64,000 nucleotides of DNA from contig OZ242351.1 in assembly GCA_965208675.1 (NCBI GenBank), forward strand, positions 3,616,001 to 3,680,000, in the 5' to 3' direction. This document shows, piece after piece, positions 53,401 to 63,060 of this stretch (the first letter of the stretch is position 1; the number at the start of each line of letters is the position of its first letter). Source of the stretch: Candidatus Poribacteria bacterium (GTDB taxonomy: Bacteria > Poribacteria > WGA-4E > PCPOR2b). Made by a program: the position numbers and the translations under genes. Under the pieces are notes generated by a model that worked only from the letters and a program-made list of their open reading frames with translations, ran no database searches and was not told where the DNA came from.

Positions 53401-54039
53401 GTGAATGATATCGTTGATCCGCACTAGGTTTTGCTCCGTGGCTTCCAATTTCTTTATCGCGGCTTTTTTGCGGCGCTTATATTTGGTGATACCCGCAACT
53501 TCATCAAACAGAAAGCGGCGTTCCTCCGGACGATTGTTGAGGATGAGGTCAATCTTGGCCTGTTCCATTATGGAGTATGCATCAACACCGATACCGGTGT
53601 CCATAAAGAGTTCCGTGATATTTCGCAGCAGGCAGGGGCTCTGATTGATGAAATAATCGCTCTCACCACTTCGTGTCAATTGGCGGCGAACCTCAATCTC
53701 CGGAGATTCGAGCGCGAGTTTTCCATCGACGTTGGTGAAACGCAAAGAAACATGCGTCTTTGGCGCCGGTTTGAAATTAGCACCGCCGTTGAAAATGATG
53801 TCCTGCATAGTGGCGCAGCGAAGCGCACGCGCACTCTGTTCGCCAAGCACCCACCGGATGGCGTCGGAAACGTTGCTTTTGCCGCAGCCGTTCGGTCCCA
53901 CAACCACAGTGACGCCCGGCTCGAGCAGTAATACCGTCTCTTCGGCAAAACTCTTAAAGCTACTGATTTTAATCTGATTGAGATACAACGGGTTTCCTCC
54001 TTCGATTGACAGACTGTTCGGCAAGCCTACTTCATTCAA
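50437..54039 (-). CDS. smc: Chromosome segregation protein SMC
   Basis: FKSF, GPNGCGKSN, hinge GRVTFLPL, LSGGE, LDEVDAALD; start probably TTG ~53988. Confidence 0.97.
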   Translation of the reverse strand: MNEVGLPNSLSIEGGNPLYLNQIKISSFKSFAEETVLLLEPGVTVVVGPNGCGKSNVSDAIRWVLGEQSARALRCATMQDIIFNGGANFKPAPKTHVSLRFTNVDGKLALESPEIEVRRQLTRSGESDYFINQSPCLLRNITELFMDTGIGVDAYSIMEQAKIDLILNNRPEERRFLFDEVAGITKYKRRKKAAIKKLEATEQNLVRINDIIHELQRETESLKRQAQEAESYQRLHDQLKTLELELNRREHGRFVKELTETQLSLDEILSLTAGANATIETTEGQIEEATEKRSELDASIRDAQEVVRQFMGEIEKTERQIALYKERQLNIQQQRQRAVQAIESLEKQHAELESQKDERNRERTQLDVALKLEESRLTARRRVLTELTTRVNDAEQTVNTTRGQLDETNTQVSQAEAQLTSLEGKLAYSSDNLNRVVENSRVLQTELETAKEAQTKAQKREQQLTADQFRVDTEKQNTEEKLQHHQDELRKLESEMRGLQDSLGMSVSRLKSLQELKAAHEGYYTGVRAILKAREIHPERFGGVCGVIAELIRTEPDYELAMEVALGNALQNVVTETAEDAQAGITFLKETQAGRVTFLPLDILRSRSFRDNNLLNQTGVIGLASELLEYDPKYTVAVQQLLGNTVVIENIDRAIELTRSFRPNARLVTLEGELINTSGAVTGGSSKTQTSGLLSRPRELGDLQERIDQLTGVVSKKDVKRKEHVKLLAQLQQTRQTLISKQQDNEIERASVTKDLEQFHDKLTHLNSQLTDAETEGASLHQETEKVKTDRKALQSQLAEDQKTQHTLQRRIERLSEQIEVECKKRDEVSESCQELEINLAGKRERLQGLGSELATLQKNQVQISESIGEHQEIIDSDNQTQQNLSEQIDEAQRQFVQAEGRKFEAEECVSQLEAERDGLIEQIAEAQKLMRRARREFDKHNRMRHHLEVTTTQLEMQLKAISARIQDKYQVSIDQIEVEEHPSSNLELMDGIETLKVQIESMGSVNLVAIEEYHEHKKREVFFAEQREDLQKSLESTYQAIQKINKTSRDAFLNTFEQIRSNFQAVFEELFNGGETELRLTDESDVLEAGIEIIACPPGKRPQSITQLSGGERSLVAIALLFAIFKIKPSPFCVLDEVDAALDEANVLRFTNLIRKYAEQTQLIIITHNKRTMEIADTMYGVTMEQAGVSKVVSAKFSG

Positions 54040-54394
54040 CGTGAATACGTAATGGTGCGTTTCAAGTCCTCATAAGAAAAATCCGTCGCTTTAATTTGTA
54101 ACTCCTCATCGGTTTTAATCCAATTCAAGATACGGAATGATAGCGCATTGTCGTCGTCTCTAGATAGATGAACGTGCGCCGAAGCTTCCACAGGAACCCT
54201 CTCTCATAAAATCGGCGCCAGTTTCGGTGCATCATGTTGGTCATGGTTGGACCCTGTCACACCACCAATTATAGAATTTATTGCGTGTGTGAAGGGGCGA
54301 GCAACGCTGCTGTATGACGCAGGCCAACTAACTGAAGCAGATGAAAAACACACGGCAATTACGCGGCTGTGTTCGCCAAGCGCAAAACTTGATA

Positions 54395-54423
54395 TTGACA
54401 AAGACTGACAGTTGTGCTATAAT
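54395..54423 (+). promoter_or_regulatory. Consensus sigma70 promoter
   Basis: Perfect TTGACA-N17-TATAAT with extended -10 TG. Confidence 0.8.
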
Positions 54424-54542
54424 CGCTTAGGTTGTGACTTGCACCCATGATGAGCATTTATTCTTGACGATACATTACCAGATGCACAGATTCCAATATC
54501 CAAGCATATTTTTCAATCTCAAATTTAGATTACGAATTCGGA

Positions 54543-55154
54543 ATGGAGAACAATCGGATGAACATAGAGCAACGCTTCGATGAAATCATTGAGAATCGGA
54601 ATTTGCTCAACCACCCCTTTTATTTAGCTTGGAGCGCAGGCCAGTTGCCCCAAGACGCATTGCGAACATACGCCCGTGAGTACGGCGCCTTCATCGCGCT
54701 TGTACCTGATGGTTGGCAAACTTTGAACGAACAGGAAATTGCGCAAGAAGAAAAAGAACATCTCGAAATGTGGAAAGACTTTGCACAAGGATTGGGAACA
54801 CACGTTGGCGAAGCCCATGTTGCGCAGGTGAAAAATCTGGTTGGCGTCGCACGGTCGCTATGGGAAAACCCGGAAACTGCACTGGGAGCGCTTTATGCCT
54901 TTGAAGCCCAGCAGCCCGCCACATCAAAGTCTAAACTCGAAGGGTTGAGAGCGTTTTACCAACTGCCGGGTGAAGTAGAACCTTACTTTGAAATCCACTC
55001 TCATAATGAGCACGAATCGGAAAAACTGCTGCATCGAATGCAACAACTTGCTCCAGGCGAACAAGATTCTGCTTTTCAAGCTTGTGAGAAAATGTGCGAC
55101 GCGCTTTGGTCGGCACTCAGCGGTATTTATGATGCGGAATGCGCGGTTAACTAA
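54543..55154 (+). CDS. Heme-oxygenase-like diiron protein (CADD/PqqC/TenA fold)
   Basis: LLNHPFYLAWSAG, YAREY, EE..H..W, ALYAFE, KLEGL, YFEIH. Confidence 0.85.
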   Translation: MENNRMNIEQRFDEIIENRNLLNHPFYLAWSAGQLPQDALRTYAREYGAFIALVPDGWQTLNEQEIAQEEKEHLEMWKDFAQGLGTHVGEAHVAQVKNLVGVARSLWENPETALGALYAFEAQQPATSKSKLEGLRAFYQLPGEVEPYFEIHSHNEHESEKLLHRMQQLAPGEQDSAFQACEKMCDALWSALSGIYDAECAVN

Positions 55155-55371
55155 CGCTCAATATTAAAGCCGTATACCGGGCGCTCCTAATGGCTGAGGG
55201 CATGAGGAACGGCATTAATCTCTCATTAATTTCCGTCTGCGATGCCCCTCGCCTCCCATTCCACAAACCTCACCTACCCGTGTACGATTGAGAGTAATTC
55301 TGTATAAGCAGATGACAGTTTAATCGTCGATACGCTCTATTGTTTGTACAGAATTACAAAATACGGCAACT

Positions 55372-55754
55372 TCAGTAGCTGTTAGATTCATCTGATTTGG
55401 GGTCCGACCCAAATCGCAATACGTGATTATCAAGGTCTTCCACTTTCATTTCGTACGCCCAGGGGTAGTTTGTTGGGACCTCTCGATTCGTAGCACCGCT
55501 CGCTTGGTGTTCTTCATATAACTTCTCGACATCCTCGACACTTATCCAAGTCCAGGTTCCAGCTTGTCCCTGATCGCCGTGGCATAGCATTATATGACAG
55601 TGGCCGCGTGATACAGACCCAAAGCCTGGCGGATCTCCCCAATCCCAATCCTCTTAAAACCGAGCACTTTTACATAATAGTCGATACTGGCTGGAAAATT
55701 CTTGACATTGAAGATGGGTATGATGCACGCAAACTTGGTTTTTGTCCTTTTCAT
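55372..55754 (-). pseudogene. Frameshifted VOC/bleomycin-resistance family gene
   Basis: IPIFNVKNFPASIDYYVKVLGFK continues in another frame as DWDWGDPPGFGSVSRG..YEMKVEDLDNHVLRFG; shift near 55650. Confidence 0.75.
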
Positions 55755-55952
55755 TGCATCCGCACTCGGCATTTCAAGAATTACGTTCCGTCAGAATTGT
55801 GTCCGCAAGTGTTGACCATTATGGCACAATTGGCAGTATTGTGTCAAACAGTATTCCCCACCCACTGGCATACGTAACAAACGCTTTCGTCTTCTATCTC
55901 GCCTCGATTTCCCACTCAACAAATTTCCCGCTGAATTTTTCTTCCAGTCTGT

Positions 55953-55980
55953 GAACTTTTCATTTCCTTGCGGTGTCATT
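55953..55980 (+). promoter_or_regulatory. Candidate ECF-type promoter
   Basis: GAACTT-N16-GTCAT about 110 nt upstream of the ECF gene. Confidence 0.45.
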
Positions 55981-56091
55981 TAGAATGGAAGCTTACCGGA
56001 TGACCTATCGCCCCGCCTTTCGCCGGTAATTTTGATAAGCAATATCAAAGTGTCCTGAACCTAAGTCGGTACTTTCTTAAGCTGATGAGCA

Positions 56092-56706
56092 TTGATATTA
56101 CAATCCGATGAATTTCTCATTGATAAGATTCTTGAACGCGATGCGGAGGCGTTTGAAGTGCTTTGGGCACGATATAGCGCGTCCGTCCGCCGACACATCA
56201 TACGCACCGTACAGGACGAAAGTGCAGCCGAGGATTTGGTTCAGGAAGCATTCTTGCGTCTATGGACATCCGCTGAGCAGTGGGATGGGCGAGGCAACTT
56301 CAAGGGGTGGTTCTTCCGTATCGCCACAAACCTCGCCCTCAATCACCTGCGCGCCCTGCGTCGGCAGAAGCAACAGCCCCTCGAAATACCGCTGGACGAT
56401 TTTGATGATACGGACGACTACTCGTCCGACCCGGATTGGATGATTGACACATCGTTACGCAGTCCCGATGTGATGCTAGAACAAGCCGAGCAGTCTAATC
56501 TGCTCTGGCGGCTGGTTGAAGAACTGCCCGAAGATAAACGAGAAGTGCTTCACCTTGTATATCGGAAAGAGATGAATCTTCGTGACGTTGCCGCTGAGAT
56601 TGGCATCCCGGAAGGCACGGTGAAGTCGCGTTTACACTATTCCATAAAGCGTCTCGCTCAAGCATGGAAGGAGATTACAGGCGAATACGAGGAAGATAGT
56701 CAGTGA
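56092..56706 (+). CDS. ECF sigma-70 factor without adjacent anti-sigma
   Basis: AEDLVQEAFLRLW..FKGWFFRIATNLALNHLR; IGIPEGTVKSRLHY. Confidence 0.95.
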   Translation: MILQSDEFLIDKILERDAEAFEVLWARYSASVRRHIIRTVQDESAAEDLVQEAFLRLWTSAEQWDGRGNFKGWFFRIATNLALNHLRALRRQKQQPLEIPLDDFDDTDDYSSDPDWMIDTSLRSPDVMLEQAEQSNLLWRLVEELPEDKREVLHLVYRKEMNLRDVAAEIGIPEGTVKSRLHYSIKRLAQAWKEITGEYEEDSQ

Positions 56707-56727
56707 ACAAGCGAGGCTATTACTCGC

Positions 56728-56797
56728 CACGCATTACGCATTCCGTATTACACATCACGATTCACGCTACACACTACACACTACACACTACACGAAA
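56728..56797 (+). repeat. Heptamer tandem repeat (10 degenerate units)
   Basis: CACGCAT TACGCAT TCCGTAT TACACAT CACGATT CACGCTA CACACTA CACACTA CACACTA CACGAAA. Confidence 0.85.
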
Positions 56798-56822
56798 TTC
56801 CCAATGGGAGGAGGAGACCGCA

Positions 56823-59800
56823 ATGTCACACAACATCACCGCATTATGGCACAAAAAATCTTTTGACCAACTGATGAACAATCGGCTGCCAGACCTACTC
56901 GCCGAGCGATTGCCGATAGCTGGCTACCATTTTGAACCTACCAGCACCTACACCGGTTGTATCAAAATCTCCCTCACGTCAACTGATGGCGACGTTGAAG
57001 TCGAATACACCGATATCCCGCAACCGGACAAGGAAGGGATGTTCAAAATTGACGGAGAAAACTATGTTGTCGTTCCAACGGCTTCGACTGATAACCTGAA
57101 AAAAGCGAAAATCAGATGTATTGGAGAGCAACTATATAGTTATATCAAAATGCGCTTGAAAGGTGCCACCTTAGACCTGTCATGGGAAACAGCCCCTGTA
57201 CGATCATGGCTCCCGCTTGATAAATGGATACAGGAATTCTTTCGTGACACATTTTACTCGCAGAAACTTCAGGAGACCAACTGGCTCGACAAGTATAGGC
57301 ATCTTCGACGGTTATACGTTCTGAACCGCGAGCAGGTATTCACGCCCTCCCACTTCGGGCGGGCATGCCCTTTCGAGACGCCAGAGGGGCCAAACATAGG
57401 TCGAATCCTTACGATTGCTAGGGGCGCCGAGATTCGCGGCGGAAAACTGGTCGTCGTTGATGAAAACCCCGAAGCAAACCTCGGCTTAGCATCGGCAATG
57501 ATCCCATTTCTTGAACACAACGATCCTGCCCAGACAATGATGGGGGCTAACATGTTGTGTCAGTGGATGGCGCCTTCGTCTCCGGAGACAGCTCCACTAC
57601 GCCAAGCCAAAGAGATACCGAGGTTGGCTGCTGCTCCGGAGCCCGCACTTGTCCAAACTGGTTTAGAACCGGATGTGCCCGACTTTTGGTGCGGTCGCAA
57701 CCTATTGACCGCTTTCATTTCTTGGGGCGGCGATACCTTCGAAGACGGCATCGTGATAAGCCGGTCGTGCGCAGCGCGTCTAAAATTTCCTTATGCAGTT
57801 GAACCCGGCGATAAGATTGGCAACCGTCATGGAACGAAAGGCGTCGTTTCGCGCATCCTGCCTGACGATGAGATGCCGCACCTTGCCGACGGTACACCGG
57901 TGGAACTTGTATTCAGTTTCGGTGGCTTGCACGCGCTAATGAACCTCGGTCAATTACGAGAGGCGGTGATGGGGCGTATTGCACGACTGGAAAATAAGCC
58001 AGCTATCGTGCCGCCATTCCGCGCTCCCTGTGCGGATGAATTGCGCGAACGCCTTAAGAACGCAGGACTTCCGGAAGATGGAATGGAACGCCTTACATTT
58101 GGGAGGAACGGTAATAAGGTGGGGCGGCATAGCACAGTCGGTTGGGTGTATTGGGGACGTCTGGCTCATATTGCGTTAGATAAAATAAAAGCCTCCGACT
58201 CAACCGATATTGAAGACCATAGGTACTTCCAAACACTTGGTGAACTTGAATACGATAGACTACGCAACGCCTCAGTACTTGAAACATTGAGGGAACATTT
58301 TAACACCCGCGCCATGAATCGGACTGATGCGCATACGTTAGCGGAGCGCGTCGCAATAGGCGAAGTTGAGCAGGCGGGTCCGCCGACGCCGATGTTCGCT
58401 AACCTCACGAATCGACTCTCGGCAGCAGGAATTTGGGCCGAACTCTACGGCGGCAAGTTGATTTTTAAATTTGGGCGACCGAATGGAAATACGCTCAAGC
58501 TTGCTCAGCCCGTCCCTTATCCGTGGTGCCGCGATCGAATCCTTGATGAAGTCGGGGTCCGTGAAGGCATGCCTGAATATCAGTCGCTTGCCGATGTCAA
58601 CGCCAGGGCTGACCGTATGCTTGCGAGTAATGCACCGGAAAGTTTAACCCGCCAAACCATCGTGCAGCTCCAAACCCGCGTCGCGGATTATGTCAATGCG
58701 CTCCTAAGCCCAACCGTCATGAACTTTAAGTCACGGAGCCTCTTCAGCGGACGCGCTGTCATAGCACCGGGTGCAGAGTTACACGCTGATCAGGTCGGTA
58801 TTCCGGAGGAGATGGCGTGGGCACTCTTTGGACATCATGTTACAAATCGGCTCGGTGATGCCGAAGAAGTACGGCGGCGTAGTCAAGGTGCAACACAAAT
58901 CCTGGATGAATTGATGGCGGGTTCGTGGGTAATTGTGCTTCGTCCACCGGCGCATACACTCACTAACCTCGTTGCGTTCCATCCGGTGCGGCACCCCGAC
59001 CGTGTCATCCGCGTGCATCCATTCGTGTGCGAGTTTATGAACGCCAATTTTGACGGCGATCAAGCAGCAGTCTTTCTCCCAATCACTGAAACCGGACAAC
59101 GCGAAGCCGGTGAACGGCTTTCCATCGCCGGGCATCTGAAACACGACCCAAGTTTATCCAAATTGCTGGCACCGACGCATGACGCGATGTGGGGATTGGC
59201 ACATTTAAGCCTCACCCCGGAAGGGCGCGGCGAAATCGCAGAGATTGTCGGAACCAACATCCCCGCCCCAGACGGTCTGGTTAGACAAGATTCGCTGGCA
59301 AAGTCACTAGAAGCCATCCTCAAATGCGATGGAATAGACCGCACGATTGAAATAGCCGAGCGTCTAATGCGGCGCGGGCTCGCAATTACTAAGGAATCGG
59401 GTGCCTCCATGAGCCCATTTATCAGTAGACCCGCTGGCAGCCCATCCGTTCCGGTAGATCCCGATGATGCACCCGCTTGGAACGCTCACGCAGAGGAACT
59501 TATCGAGTGGCTTGCCGCGTGTAACGACTTCGCGGACAACAACTTGGGACCGCACATCCTTGCGGCAAAAAGCCAAGACGCACGCAGTAGACTTTATCGA
59601 ATCGCTTGCTGTGTCGGGGCAAGAGGTACGGTTTTGGACCTTCGAGGAAGAGATATCATCGTTCGCAACGGGTATAGCGACGGTTTAACACCCGGTGAAC
59701 TTTACCCGCTTTCCGTCACTTCGCGGGAGGAGATTGTGCGGCTCAATTTGGAACGGCAACGGATAGAATTGGAATTGCGCAACGACAGTGAGCCAGCAGG

Positions 59801-59942
59801 ATTCACCGTCCTGGTGCGTGCAATGCGTGCCAAACACCCAGGTGTCGTTTTCGCCCGAGCCGCTGCAACCGGTGAGGTCGATCCGCTTACTGATGTGGAC
59901 AGCCGTCTTTTCGTCGGGCTACCTGTATCAACTGAGGAGTGA
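56823..59942 (+). CDS. Miniaturised single-chain RNA polymerase beta-beta' fusion protein
   Basis: beta motifs CPFETPEGPNIG, IPFLEHND..MGANM, FEDGIVIS, GDKIGNRHGTKGVVS, followed by beta' motifs FSGRAVI, LRPPAH, NANFDGDQ; GGAGGAGG RBS before ATG 56823. Confidence 0.9.
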   Translation: MSHNITALWHKKSFDQLMNNRLPDLLAERLPIAGYHFEPTSTYTGCIKISLTSTDGDVEVEYTDIPQPDKEGMFKIDGENYVVVPTASTDNLKKAKIRCIGEQLYSYIKMRLKGATLDLSWETAPVRSWLPLDKWIQEFFRDTFYSQKLQETNWLDKYRHLRRLYVLNREQVFTPSHFGRACPFETPEGPNIGRILTIARGAEIRGGKLVVVDENPEANLGLASAMIPFLEHNDPAQTMMGANMLCQWMAPSSPETAPLRQAKEIPRLAAAPEPALVQTGLEPDVPDFWCGRNLLTAFISWGGDTFEDGIVISRSCAARLKFPYAVEPGDKIGNRHGTKGVVSRILPDDEMPHLADGTPVELVFSFGGLHALMNLGQLREAVMGRIARLENKPAIVPPFRAPCADELRERLKNAGLPEDGMERLTFGRNGNKVGRHSTVGWVYWGRLAHIALDKIKASDSTDIEDHRYFQTLGELEYDRLRNASVLETLREHFNTRAMNRTDAHTLAERVAIGEVEQAGPPTPMFANLTNRLSAAGIWAELYGGKLIFKFGRPNGNTLKLAQPVPYPWCRDRILDEVGVREGMPEYQSLADVNARADRMLASNAPESLTRQTIVQLQTRVADYVNALLSPTVMNFKSRSLFSGRAVIAPGAELHADQVGIPEEMAWALFGHHVTNRLGDAEEVRRRSQGATQILDELMAGSWVIVLRPPAHTLTNLVAFHPVRHPDRVIRVHPFVCEFMNANFDGDQAAVFLPITETGQREAGERLSIAGHLKHDPSLSKLLAPTHDAMWGLAHLSLTPEGRGEIAEIVGTNIPAPDGLVRQDSLAKSLEAILKCDGIDRTIEIAERLMRRGLAITKESGASMSPFISRPAGSPSVPVDPDDAPAWNAHAEELIEWLAACNDFADNNLGPHILAAKSQDARSRLYRIACCVGARGTVLDLRGRDIIVRNGYSDGLTPGELYPLSVTSREEIVRLNLERQRIELELRNDSEPAGFTVLVRAMRAKHPGVVFARAAATGEVDPLTDVDSRLFVGLPVSTEE

Positions 59943-59979
59943 TTCATTATCTCGAACACACACATTATCCCTGATACAG

Positions 59980-60786
59980 TCATTCATCAAAGACTTCGCT
60001 GCCGATTGAGCCGCCGGCATTCATCGCCAAGTTGCCGCCGTCCATCGGAATTATCGCACCGGTAATCCATGAGGACGCATCCGATGCGAGAAACACGGTT
60101 AGACCGCGGATGTCGTCAGGACTCCCGAATCGACCCATTGGAATGCCGCTGAGGAACCGATCCCTAATTCGCGGATCAGCGTCGATGCGTTTCTGCAAAT
60201 CTGGGTTTAATACTTGTGCGGGTAAAATCGCATTGACTCGCACACCGCGCCCCGACCATTCGGTGCTCAGCTCACGTGTCATCTGAACAACCGCACCCAT
60301 CGCCATGCTGTATGCGATGTGCCCGCGGCCCATACCCGTGATGCTTGCCAAAGAACCGAGACTTACGATGCTCCCACTTCCAGCAGTAAGCATCCGCCGC
60401 CCGGCTTCCTGACAACAACAGAATCTGCCATAGACAAGGTTGCGCCAAGTCTGTTCAACGTCTTCTAATGAGATAACCTCCGGTTTTGATCGGGTCGCTT
60501 CGCCCGCGACATTACCTAGAAAATCGATCCGACCAAATTCCTCGTCCACTCGTGCAAACATGGCGCGGATTTGATCCGGACGCGATACGTCACAATCAAC
60601 AGCGATGGCACGGCGTCCCATCGCCTTGATTTCTCTAGCAGTTTTCCCCGCACCAGCCAAGTCAATATCTGCAAGCATCAAGTCCGCCCCCGCTTCTGCC
60701 AAAGCTAACGACATCGCACGACCCATGCCACTAGCCGCTCCCGATACAACTGCAACTCGTCCGGCAAGATTGAACATCTCCGTCAC
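59980..60786 (-). CDS. SDR family oxidoreductase
   Basis: SGAASGMG, VRVNAILP, PMDGG; catalytic YxxxK appears as YSMAM. Confidence 0.9.
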   Translation of the reverse strand: MTEMFNLAGRVAVVSGAASGMGRAMSLALAEAGADLMLADIDLAGAGKTAREIKAMGRRAIAVDCDVSRPDQIRAMFARVDEEFGRIDFLGNVAGEATRSKPEVISLEDVEQTWRNLVYGRFCCCQEAGRRMLTAGSGSIVSLGSLASITGMGRGHIAYSMAMGAVVQMTRELSTEWSGRGVRVNAILPAQVLNPDLQKRIDADPRIRDRFLSGIPMGRFGSPDDIRGLTVFLASDASSWITGAIIPMDGGNLAMNAGGSIGSEVFDE

Positions 60787-61319
60787 AATCCCCTCTCTGT
60801 CTTCATTTTAAATCCAATTACGCTCTCATAGTTGGTGACCGGGATTGAAGCCCTTCTATTTCGTGATGCCTTGGCGCGGGTTCAACTCTTTAATCGCTAA
60901 CACATTTTACACACCGCGCCAAGTGTGTCAAGATGAGAAATTCAGGATTAACAAAAAAGACCTCAAGCATGCGTCATTGAGATTGGCAGCTGTTTTTACG
61001 TGTTGACTCTTTCTTTTCCAATCAACGATTCGAGTTTTTTCTGCAACTGGAAAGTCCTTTCGAACTTCTATGTCCGCTGCTTCTATCGTCTCTCGTAGGG
61101 CTCGATTTGCCTGAACGGCGCCGGCTCCATTGCCTTGTACCTGCTTCTCAAAAAAGATTGTAAACGACGCCGCTTCGACAAATTCATACCGCCGGCCGCA
61201 CACGGTTCTCTGTTCAAATTTATCCCCGGCAAGTGCGAATTTCACCGAATTAAACTATTCTCTTTCACTTTCGGTCTATAAGTAACGAAAATTCAACTCA
61301 AACGCCTGGAGGACTTACT

Positions 61320-61715
61320 ATGCACAGCCAGTTTGACTGGCCCCTTAGACCAGCCGATCTGAATACATCAACGACGCAGGCGCTTCCACTTATGTCAATG
61401 GCAGAAAACCTTTTGAAAGAAGCAACGCTTAAGGCGTCCGGGCGGTCCGCGCTGACATTAGCCCGCGGCGATGAGCTTACGGTGGTATTGACCGTACTCA
61501 AAGCTGGACATAAACTCGCCGAGCATCCTGCGCCAGCCGCAGCCGCTGTCACTTGCCTCGGCGGAAACATCTCGTTTAATACTGACGCTGAAAGAATTAC
61601 GCTAGAGCAAGGCGAGGCGGTTGTTTTTACCGCCGATGTCCTTCACTCTGTTTACGCCAACGAGGACAGTGTGTTTTTAATCGTTATTGGCGGCGCAGAG
61701 GCTAAACACAACTAG
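61320..61715 (+). CDS. Cupin domain protein
   Basis: LAEHPAP..LEQGEAVVF..LHSVYA; GGAGG RBS. Confidence 0.85.
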   Translation: MHSQFDWPLRPADLNTSTTQALPLMSMAENLLKEATLKASGRSALTLARGDELTVVLTVLKAGHKLAEHPAPAAAAVTCLGGNISFNTDAERITLEQGEAVVFTADVLHSVYANEDSVFLIVIGGAEAKHN

Positions 61716-61899: not shown

Positions 61900-63060
61900 T
61901 CAGATTTTGGCGCTGTGGGCACGTAGATACCGCGCCACCTCAACACGGTCTTCGTGTTCTGCCCATGCAAGCGGGGATAGGTGATGAGCACCGTCTTTAT
62001 GATTTAGGTTTGCACCTCGCTCTGCGAGAAGCATGGCTACCGCGAGATGGCCCTTGAACGCCGAAAAGTGGAGCGGCATCCACACTGCACCTAATCCGGG
62101 CGGCATCGCATCTACTCCCGCGCCTCGGTCAATCAGCAAGGCGGCAACCTCCGCACGACCATTCAAACTGGCAATACACAATGCTTCATCAAGAATCTCT
62201 TGCGGTTCGTCCGACCGAGACTTCTCTTCAAACCAGCCGATGTCGCCGAGGTTCGGTCGATCAGATGCCGCCTCCGGCTTCAGGGTTCCATCTTCAGCAA
62301 AGTAAGACTTAACCAAGTCAATGCCGCCGCCGCCCGCCGCCATCCAAAAGCTACACGGCGATATACCACGCTCAATCCAAAAATCGACAGTATCCCGATT
62401 CCCGTGCAACATGGCCGATTTTATCTGCCAAATGGCAGGAGATTCGTCCGAGCGTAACGCGCCGGTTTCGATGAGGAGTTGGACAGCTTCTAGATTGTTT
62501 GCCCAAAACACTTTTTCCATTCGAGCCCCCGCCCCAATAAGGGCGCGCATTATGGGAAGTCGAGTGTCGGTGGAGATGCCTTCGATCGAGGCGGCGTATT
62601 CTAGAAGTGTGATATAGTCCTCAGATACCTCTGGCACCTTTATCATCGCGTTGACAATGGAGGGGTCATGTGTTAACAGTTCTCTCAGTGTGTCTGAATC
62701 GCCTTTCCGGACGGCTTCAAACGCTGCACTCAAGGTTTCGTCGGTGCGCTCCGTAGGGTCGGCTCCGAGCATGATTGCACGTTCCACGAGTTTCGCCCAA
62801 CTCCTAAAACCCCTTTCACGCGCAATCACGAGTTGCGCCTCTTTTAATGACAGGTCAAACGCGCGGATTTGTTCATCTTTTGCGCCCGGGAAAAGCGGAT
62901 GGTATTCCCGAAGGCGATGAACAGCCCAACGCAAACCAGATTGATGCGCCTTCAATAGAGTTCGCGCTAGTCTGTGGTAGTAGGCGCCGCCATTCCCCCA
63001 TCCCCACAGCATATGGTCGCGCGGGTCTCGCGTGGAGTGCTCGATCAAGTTCACAGTCAT
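61900..63060 (-). CDS. Ankyrin repeat protein
   Basis: AQLVIARERGFRSW N-terminal motif; PLHFSAFKGH..LLAERGAN, SPLAWA. Confidence 0.88.
   Translation of the reverse strand: MTVNLIEHSTRDPRDHMLWGWGNGGAYYHRLARTLLKAHQSGLRWAVHRLREYHPLFPGAKDEQIRAFDLSLKEAQLVIARERGFRSWAKLVERAIMLGADPTERTDETLSAAFEAVRKGDSDTLRELLTHDPSIVNAMIKVPEVSEDYITLLEYAASIEGISTDTRLPIMRALIGAGARMEKVFWANNLEAVQLLIETGALRSDESPAIWQIKSAMLHGNRDTVDFWIERGISPCSFWMAAGGGGIDLVKSYFAEDGTLKPEAASDRPNLGDIGWFEEKSRSDEPQEILDEALCIASLNGRAEVAALLIDRGAGVDAMPPGLGAVWMPLHFSAFKGHLAVAMLLAERGANLNHKDGAHHLSPLAWAEHEDRVEVARYLRAHSAKI

Follow-up and report, generated by a model that had tools for sequence, protein, structure and literature searches.

Can a cellular-type RNA polymerase (RNAP) that lacks the first of its three metal-binding aspartates still work as a polymerase, or has it been kept for something else? 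The question is raised by a locus in a 64,000-nucleotide stretch of the genome of a sponge symbiont, a Candidatus Poribacteria bacterium (GenBank assembly GCA_965208675.1, contig OZ242351.1, positions 3,616,001 to 3,680,000 of the forward strand). This whole stretch is hereafter called the window, and its own numbering is used below. The gene in question encodes a single-chain fusion of a beta-like and a beta'-like polymerase half, hereafter called the mini-RNAP, whose catalytic NADFDGD motif reads NANFDGD. Ordinary RNA synthesis is probably not what the protein is kept for. From the sequence comparisons described here, we see an even chance that its polymerase chemistry is crippled and that it is retained in a role without catalysis, for example binding to sigma or to promoters. 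The features on which the argument turns are the following.

55951 to 55978, plus strand: extracytoplasmic function (ECF)-type promoter-like motif, GTGAAC-N13-GCGGTGTCA, 114-141 nt upstream of the sigma gene, with a putative promoter function.
56092 to 56706, plus strand: gene for an ECF-type sigma factor of 204 amino acids (aa), with sigma-2, an acidic linker and sigma-4.
56823 to 59942 including the stop codon, plus strand: mini-RNAP gene, encoding the 1039-aa single-chain beta-like/beta'-like fusion.
59040 to 59060, plus strand: NANFDGD, in which N742 (AAT, 59046-59048) replaces the first Mg-binding aspartate and D744 and D746 are kept.

The mechanically called open reading frame (ORF) of the mini-RNAP has a GTG start at 56703 and shares bases with the stop codon of the sigma gene. 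Because residue 41 of this query is where the listed homologues start, the start was placed at the ATG at 56823, giving the 1039-aa protein and a gap of 116 nt between the two genes. The codons AAC GCC AAT TTT GAC GGC GAT at 59040-59060 are in frame and base 59046 is an A, as an initial annotation of the DNA had read them. Because BLAST against Escherichia coli K-12 RpoC aligned NANFDGD with NADFDGD at 458-464, N742 is the equivalent of beta' D460; D744 corresponds to D462 and D746 to D464. Not all three aspartates expected of a competent active centre are therefore present in the window protein. The initial annotation had allowed that a G at 59046 would expose the asparagine as an error, and base 59046 was accordingly compared with Logan contigs from four runs of four studies. 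The comparison used contigs and not raw reads, and one run, X1, may be the window's own source. Base 59046 was A in all of the contigs, which showed no difference at 59046-59048. The contigs differed from the window at 6 to 27 other places, so the four runs represent distinct strains. The AAT codon is also found in the three other complete genomes of the window's genus, and hence in 4/4. A sequencing or assembly error at this base was rejected on these grounds, and we regard it as extremely improbable.

Pfam domains were found in the mini-RNAP in the order Rpb2_3, Rpb2_6, Rpb1_2, each above its cut-off. The Rpb2_6 match (129.4 bits, cut-off 23.4) marks a beta-like barrel with the GDK..HG.KG lysines, and the Rpb1_2 match (58.3 bits, cut-off 25.3) a beta'-like barrel with the metal-binding motif. 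The NCBIfam rpoB and rpoC models gave partial matches far under their cut-offs; what the gene encodes is therefore a fusion of two trimmed cores, that of beta and that of beta'. A structure predicted with AlphaFold2 from an 83-sequence alignment had a pLDDT of 92.9 and a pTM of 0.90. The best 50 Foldseek matches of this model in the PDB were RNAP beta-type chains (E values from 1e-22, TM scores 0.3-0.58), with bacterial RNAP beta chains at the top. A sequence search of the PDB returned canonical RNAP chains only and no solved mini-enzyme. With both barrels and the fold present, the mini-RNAP belongs to the two-barrel (cellular-type) RNAP superfamily. By its length, colinearity and upstream ECF sigma gene it is also a member of an unnamed family, defined here by homology, that we refer to as the sigma-linked mini beta-beta' family. 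Among the 120 homologues listed, all are 990-1106 aa long and 50-94% identical to the query, with 92-97% query coverage. They are named only "hypothetical protein" or by bare domain lists, and the protein atlas cluster names are generic. Only about 20 residues separate the ED pair from GDK, where beta has its flap, and in the model the space behind the long helix 957-988 appears too small for a trigger loop.

The initial annotation had framed the asparagine either as a change shared by the whole family, giving a pseudo-enzyme or altered chemistry, or as an inactivation specific to one strain. The motif was tabulated in a 205-row family alignment, made up of 187 proteins 900-1200 aa long, 17 loci and the window, with three rows duplicated between loci and protein identifiers. 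Neither framing survived. In the column equivalent to D460, 188 rows carry Asp, 15 Asn and two Gly, which rejects a family-wide change. The 15 Asn rows represent 12 distinct proteins: the window's and eight relatives at 80-94% identity (P0003-P0010), two proteins that are about 67% identical to the window's (P0029 and P0034) and one that is 46% identical (L011). A strain-specific change was likewise rejected, since Asn is fixed across the window's genus (gene present in 4/4 genomes of four species, all AAT), in the relatives at 80-94% identity and in two further Poribacteria lineages. In the sister genus g5 the gene is present in 15/20 genomes, all with Asp, and eight loci of genus g11 carry Asp in seven cases and Asn in one. 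A tree of 36 chosen rows, comprising all 12 Asn proteins and 24 Asp relatives and outgroups, was built with the four trait residues masked. It needs three state changes, and its well-supported branches force three. The three Asn lineages each lie within Poribacteria. Judged from sequence, the family as a whole is found in several bacterial phyla and normally keeps what would be the full catalytic set, namely NADFDGD, the beta ED pair, both beta lysines and the arginines of the nucleoside triphosphate (NTP) pocket.

Fixation of the same Asn change three times fits a tolerated or useful variant, and thus speaks for a rival explanation in which the Asn form still works as a polymerase, at a lower rate or with different needs for metal or substrate. 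Metal would then still be ligated by the amide oxygen of the asparagine, in an active centre more tolerant than that of cellular enzymes. Position 740 is Asp in 3/9 proteins of the window's clade (DANFDGD), which would suit this explanation, but no compensating acidic residue is common to the three Asn lineages. In the Michaelis complex of the E. coli enzyme, moreover, D460 is described as ligating both catalytic metals, Mg A and Mg B (PMC13198411), and the D460A substitution leaves E. coli RNAP inactive, although the enzyme forms and stays in the open complex (PMC5730371). When all three aspartates of the prophage polymerase YonO were changed to Asn, the enzyme formed stable elongation complexes and was inactive (PMC5467207). 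No report of a single Asp-to-Asn change at the D460 position was found in the literature covered, which left out subscription journals.

In the P0158, P0192, P0163 set, two distant family members have fully degenerate motifs, EVGFSAQ and NAGFGGL, with further changes at catalytic positions, and one protein reads DFDGN. From their sequences these are further candidate inactive forms outside Poribacteria.

Other residues of the active site were located by BLAST against E. coli K-12 RpoB and RpoC. Beta R678 and R1106 are described as forming the NTP gamma-phosphate pocket and K1073 as contacting the alpha-phosphate; these contacts, that of D460 and the Asp motif are described there as universally conserved (PMC13198411). 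The equivalents in the window are listed below.

57531 to 57533, plus strand: CAG, Q237, equivalent of beta R678 in the gamma-phosphate pocket, from an ungapped BLAST alignment to RpoB.
57558 to 57560, plus strand: TGT, C246, equivalent of beta R687 (NMQRQ becomes NMLCQ).
57741 to 57746, plus strand: E307-D308, equivalents of beta E813/D814, kept.
57813 to 57839, plus strand: GDKIGNRHGTKG, with K331 (beta K1065) and K339 (beta K1073), kept.
57936 to 57938, plus strand: CTA, L372, equivalent of beta R1106 (SRMN becomes ALMN), from BLAST.

The initial annotation had noted that the ED pair and both lysines are kept and that SRMN reads ALMN, and BLAST and the family alignment bore this out; both lysines are present in 12/12 Asn-clade rows. 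Its reading of KMHAR as KIKAS was also correct, but KIKAS was rejected as a deviation, the last column being variable across the family (K 44, H 41 and R 37 of 190 rows). The arginines are another matter. In the 190 other rows of the alignment, position 237 is R in 169, H in 17 and K in three; position 246 is R in 189 and K in one; and position 372 is R in 186. All 28 Asp-bearing sister sequences carry Arg at all three positions, with no exception. At positions 237, 246 and 372 the nine distinct Asn-clade proteins read QCL (the window), RCL (two), RCR, QCR, QRR (three) and RRR, so that eight of the nine are without at least one of the three arginines; Cys stands at 246 in five and Leu at 372 in three. 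Across the contigs of the four runs the C246 and L372 codons are unchanged, and CTA at 372 is two changes away from the CGG of the relatives. The gamma-phosphate pocket of the window protein thus has Q237 and L372 in place of its two arginines. In the second Asn lineage to show such changes (L011 and L053), Gln stands at the R1106 position and three residues are deleted from the GANM loop; neither change is present in the 6-7 nearest relatives that bear Asp. Conservation of at least 90% in the other 190 rows is seen at 175 columns; the window's clade deviates at 22 of these, and the arginines stand out among them. Over 166 family-conserved columns, deviating cells make up 6.1% in the Asn clade vs 2.6% in the sister clade. 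The four changed residues of the window protein would, to judge from their E. coli equivalents, be clustered in space.

The loss of near-invariant NTP-pocket arginines, almost confined to Asn lineages, is the part of the original pseudo-enzyme proposal that holds. It also counts against a working polymerase, as does the absence of both gamma-phosphate arginines from the window protein. On the other side stand the conservation in the Asn clade of the barrel cores, the other two aspartates, both lysines, the ED pair and R707, strong purifying selection on the whole mini-RNAP gene, and pocket variation among Asp-bearing g11 proteins, in which the K1065 equivalent is missing and His replaces R678. 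Taking both sides together, we consider a still-working Asn polymerase possible though somewhat unlikely.

The variation in g11 is an observation in its own right. The Asp-bearing g11 loci (L010, L013, L014, L020, L021, L046 and L048-L052) have Ala, Thr or Ser at the K1065 position (GDA/GDT). In most of these loci R678 is also replaced by His and NMQRQ by GMQRQ, so that even with DFDGD intact the family's active centre is unusually variable in Poribacteria. A further curiosity is a second catalytic-motif-like string, for example GIHANFDGDKLTFQF, at about residue 538 of P0011-P0013, P0016, P0017, P0022, P0024, P0028 and P0039. Its place is the linker that joins the beta-like half to the beta'-like one. 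The window protein reads GIWAELYGGKLIFKF at residues ~535-550, without a second FDGD-like string.

Selection on the locus was estimated as pairwise dN/dS (NG86), and any relaxation is judged from these pairwise values. The g5 rows exclude L040, which belongs to another genus, and the split gene L043.

Mini-RNAP, window's genus: 0.183-0.266, median 0.209 (6 pairs; dS median 0.44, up to 0.48).
Mini-RNAP, g5, 14 genomes: 0.102-0.190, median 0.144 (91 pairs; dS median 0.41).
Mini-RNAP, g11-type loci: 0.14-0.21 (21 pairs; dS 0.24-0.61).
Sigma gene, window's genus: 0.16-0.22 (6 pairs; dS 0.22-0.42).
Canonical rpoC, window's genus: 0.041-0.079 (6 pairs; dS 0.23-0.68).
Canonical rpoC, g5: 0.038 (1 pair; dS 0.55).

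The mini-RNAP is therefore under clear purifying selection. Because canonical rpoC stays near 0.04 in both genera, the rise in the Asn genus is specific to the mini-RNAP, and a lineage-wide rise, not seen in rpoC, was rejected. The relaxation is gene-specific and modest. Along the chain, relatively high variability in the Asn clade is found near residues 121-200, 361-400 and 961-1000.

That dN/dS exceeds the value of the sister genus would also suit a gene that is dispensable in Poribacteria and in early decay, the asparagine and the Arg losses being first hits and nothing being retained. Its presence among relatives is patchy, with matches in 32/61 genomes at E <= 1e-50; five of the 20 g5 genomes have no match, four of them 98-99% complete; and one 152-aa remnant and one gene split over two frames were found. 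The frame is nevertheless intact in 4/4 genomes of the window's genus and in all nine distinct Asn-clade proteins, dN/dS of 0.18-0.27 at dS up to 0.48 is far below 1, and the sigma factor and promoter are conserved alongside. Early decay is accordingly considered improbable. As to where the gaps fall, the four near-complete g5 genomes without a match at this threshold are G014, G017, G019 and G022, and the families f2 (0/14) and f4 (0/7) gave no match either. The remnant, in G006, is C-terminal, and the split gene, in G020, is broken at about residue 555.

The sigma gene lies directly upstream of the mini-RNAP gene. Its product matched Pfam Sigma70_r2, Sigma70_r4 and Sigma70_ECF, and NCBIfam TIGR02937 at 117 bits against a cut-off of 42.9. 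A sigma homologue lies upstream on the same strand in 17/17 related loci with upstream DNA, and it is the only neighbour common to distant clades. ORFs intervene between the two genes in two loci, an 801-aa and a 140-aa ORF in L013 and two minus-strand ORFs in L009, and these may be insertions into the module. On the polymerase side there is a candidate contact surface:

58572 to 58703, plus strand: an antiparallel pair of long helices, H584-601 and H606-627 in the model, together spanning residues 584-627.

Window residues 586-796 align by BLAST with E. coli beta' 269-514, and we take these helices to be the clamp helices, the usual docking site of sigma-2. A predicted complex of the sigma factor with residues 480-1039 scored 0.35 against 0.02 for the best control, weak support for binding that may reflect likeness to the sigma-beta' complexes already solved. 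The runs agreed in at least 30% of contacts, with a partner pLDDT of at least 64. The mark that this prediction passed was also reached by 58/80 solved complexes and by 2/110 mismatched pairs; scores of 0.60 or less were given to only 7/80 solved complexes and to both mismatches that passed.

The motif GTGAAC-N13-GCGGTGTCA was found upstream of the sigma gene in 11/11 aligned loci (the window, L006, L007, L016, L008, L010, L011, L014, L020, L021 and L022), embedded in otherwise unalignable DNA; one of the 11 reads GTGGTGTCA. It is thus kept across clades whose polymerases are only 46% identical. In the single-contig 4.89-Mb genome the strict pattern occurs once, upstream of sigma, and looser patterns gave 2, 4 and 13 matches. 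Since the strict pattern is unique, no other target of the sigma factor is evident.

Brought together, these observations suggest the following course of events. The locus is a self-contained two-gene module of an ECF-type promoter, an ECF sigma factor and a 1039-aa single-chain beta/beta' fusion. In the window's genus, a single G-to-A transition turned the first metal-binding Asp into Asn, which was then fixed and may have crippled nucleotide addition. Selection on the remainder of the NTP pocket would then have relaxed, letting the R678, R687 and R1106 equivalents vary or vanish. Such erosion, seen in 2/3 Asn lineages, is what would be expected if nucleotide addition had stopped being selected. 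The continued purifying selection on the protein, together with that on sigma and promoter, indicates that something is still selected. The retained role would most likely need binding and not synthesis, for example by a sigma-bound complex sitting on promoter DNA, much as the engineered D460A enzyme is trapped in the open complex. Both the loss of activity and the nature of this role are inferred from sequence.

Several observations weigh against this account of a crippled polymerase retained for binding. D744, D746, E307/D308, K331, K339 and R707 are all kept, and one might expect these to go as well in a protein that makes no use of its active centre. In the Asn clade no part of the protein is better conserved than the two barrel cores (residues 281-360 and 721-800), whose pairwise differences of 0.07-0.09 are like those of the Asp clade, and the relaxation is, as stated, only modest. 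Some activity, residual or Mn-dependent, can survive a single Asp-to-Asn change. The arginine evidence is itself uneven: P0003, within the window's clade, keeps all three; the P0029/P0034 Asn lineage shows no Arg loss; and Q237 varies at strain level, the contigs of the runs X5, X6 and X7 having G at 57532 and hence Arg (CGG). The arginine codons are CGN and easily mutated, and the g11 changes, which occur despite an intact DFDGD, mean that the family may tolerate more than cellular polymerases do. Finally, the genome offers no strong promoter match apart from that of the module itself, so the benefit of a complex that does not transcribe is unexplained.

P0003 merits a separate remark. From residue 401 onward it is 94-100% identical to the window protein in most 50-residue windows (90% in one), and its residues 1-400, which carry Arg at 246 and 372, are only 74-96% identical. 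This mosaic sequence indicates intragenic recombination between alleles, the N-terminal 400 residues probably stemming from another allele. Such recombination is one reason, and the CGN codons are another, why the Arg-loss pattern departs from the tree.

The genomic setting is otherwise ordinary. The mini-RNAP is single-copy, and the canonical rpoB and rpoC genes, located elsewhere in the genome, carry NMQRQ, SRMN and NADFDGD. No second intact mini-RNAP copy was found, the only other matches being these canonical genes. Public runs with a matching stretch are mostly labelled sponge metagenomes, and no RNA runs were among those listed for the 4-kb stretch of the locus. An Rfam scan of 54000-61500 gave no match, PADLOC gave none for the mini-RNAP, PHROGs matched it to generic RNAP beta-type families only, and a scan for sigma-70 promoters and terminators found nothing exceeding shuffled sequences. 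Among the neighbours, a 386-aa ankyrin-repeat protein is encoded on the minus strand at 61900-63060; ankyrin-repeat proteins are common in sponge symbionts. Further neighbours are ordinary chromosomal genes (SMC, haem-oxygenase-like, short-chain dehydrogenase and radical SAM).

What would follow if the reading of a non-catalytic binder is right? The Asp triad is treated as invariant in cellular-type RNAPs, and the Asn series lies outside the essential enzyme. Close relatives with and without the first Asp, in which Asn arose three times and the pocket eroded stepwise afterwards, make up a natural series. With it one can ask what a two-barrel core does without full metal binding and how an enzyme turns into a binding protein. 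We tentatively put forward, as a claim that may well prove too strong, that an undescribed family of sigma-dependent single-chain mini-RNAPs exists in several phyla, and that within it Poribacteria made a "dead polymerase" at least three times; such a protein, selected as a promoter binder, would be the first natural pseudo-enzyme derived from a cellular RNAP core. No description of the sigma-linked mini beta-beta' family, or of a natural Asn at the D460 position, was found in the literature covered, which did not include subscription journals. A 1039-aa fusion with its own ECF sigma factor and promoter would be the smallest sigma-dependent relative of bacterial RNAP found, and the surrounding family merits study in its own right.

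Comparison with known systems places the mini-RNAP as follows. E. coli RpoB and RpoC share with it the two barrel cores and the same order of motifs, NMQRQ, ED, GDK..HG.KG and SRMN, followed by the clamp helices, NADFDGD and a C-terminal region. They are two chains of 1342 and 1407 aa, whereas the window encodes one chain of 1039 aa, with Asn for the first Asp and with Q, C and L where the E. coli enzyme has R678, R687 and R1106. The engineered D460A enzyme of E. coli has lost the same residue as the window protein (PMC5730371); the one is a laboratory Ala in a full enzyme and the other a natural Asn in a mini-enzyme known from sequence alone. Full-length fusions of the PRK09603 and PRK14844 type also carry beta and then beta' in one chain, and the window protein matches these models at E values of 8e-42 and 3e-45. 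The models span 2839-2890 positions with cut-offs of 4632-5372 bits, and the window protein, at 142-154 bits, is far under these and thus not a member. YonO, from prophage SPbeta, is like the window protein a single chain (about 100 kDa) without trigger-loop homology (PMC5467207). Its homology to cellular RNAP is described as very distant and no sigma partner is mentioned in the available part of that source, whereas the window protein scores 129 bits with Rpb2_6 and has a sigma gene upstream; the two are set apart here by description. Orf6 of the yeast killer plasmid pGKL2 has the same architecture, being a 982-aa Rpb2::Rpb1 fusion from which roughly half of either part is missing (PMC2919709). 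This plasmid enzyme is eukaryotic, cytoplasmic and without a sigma factor, and was compared by description only. The pGKL2 Orf6 fusion and YonO are the nearest described analogues of the mini-RNAP.

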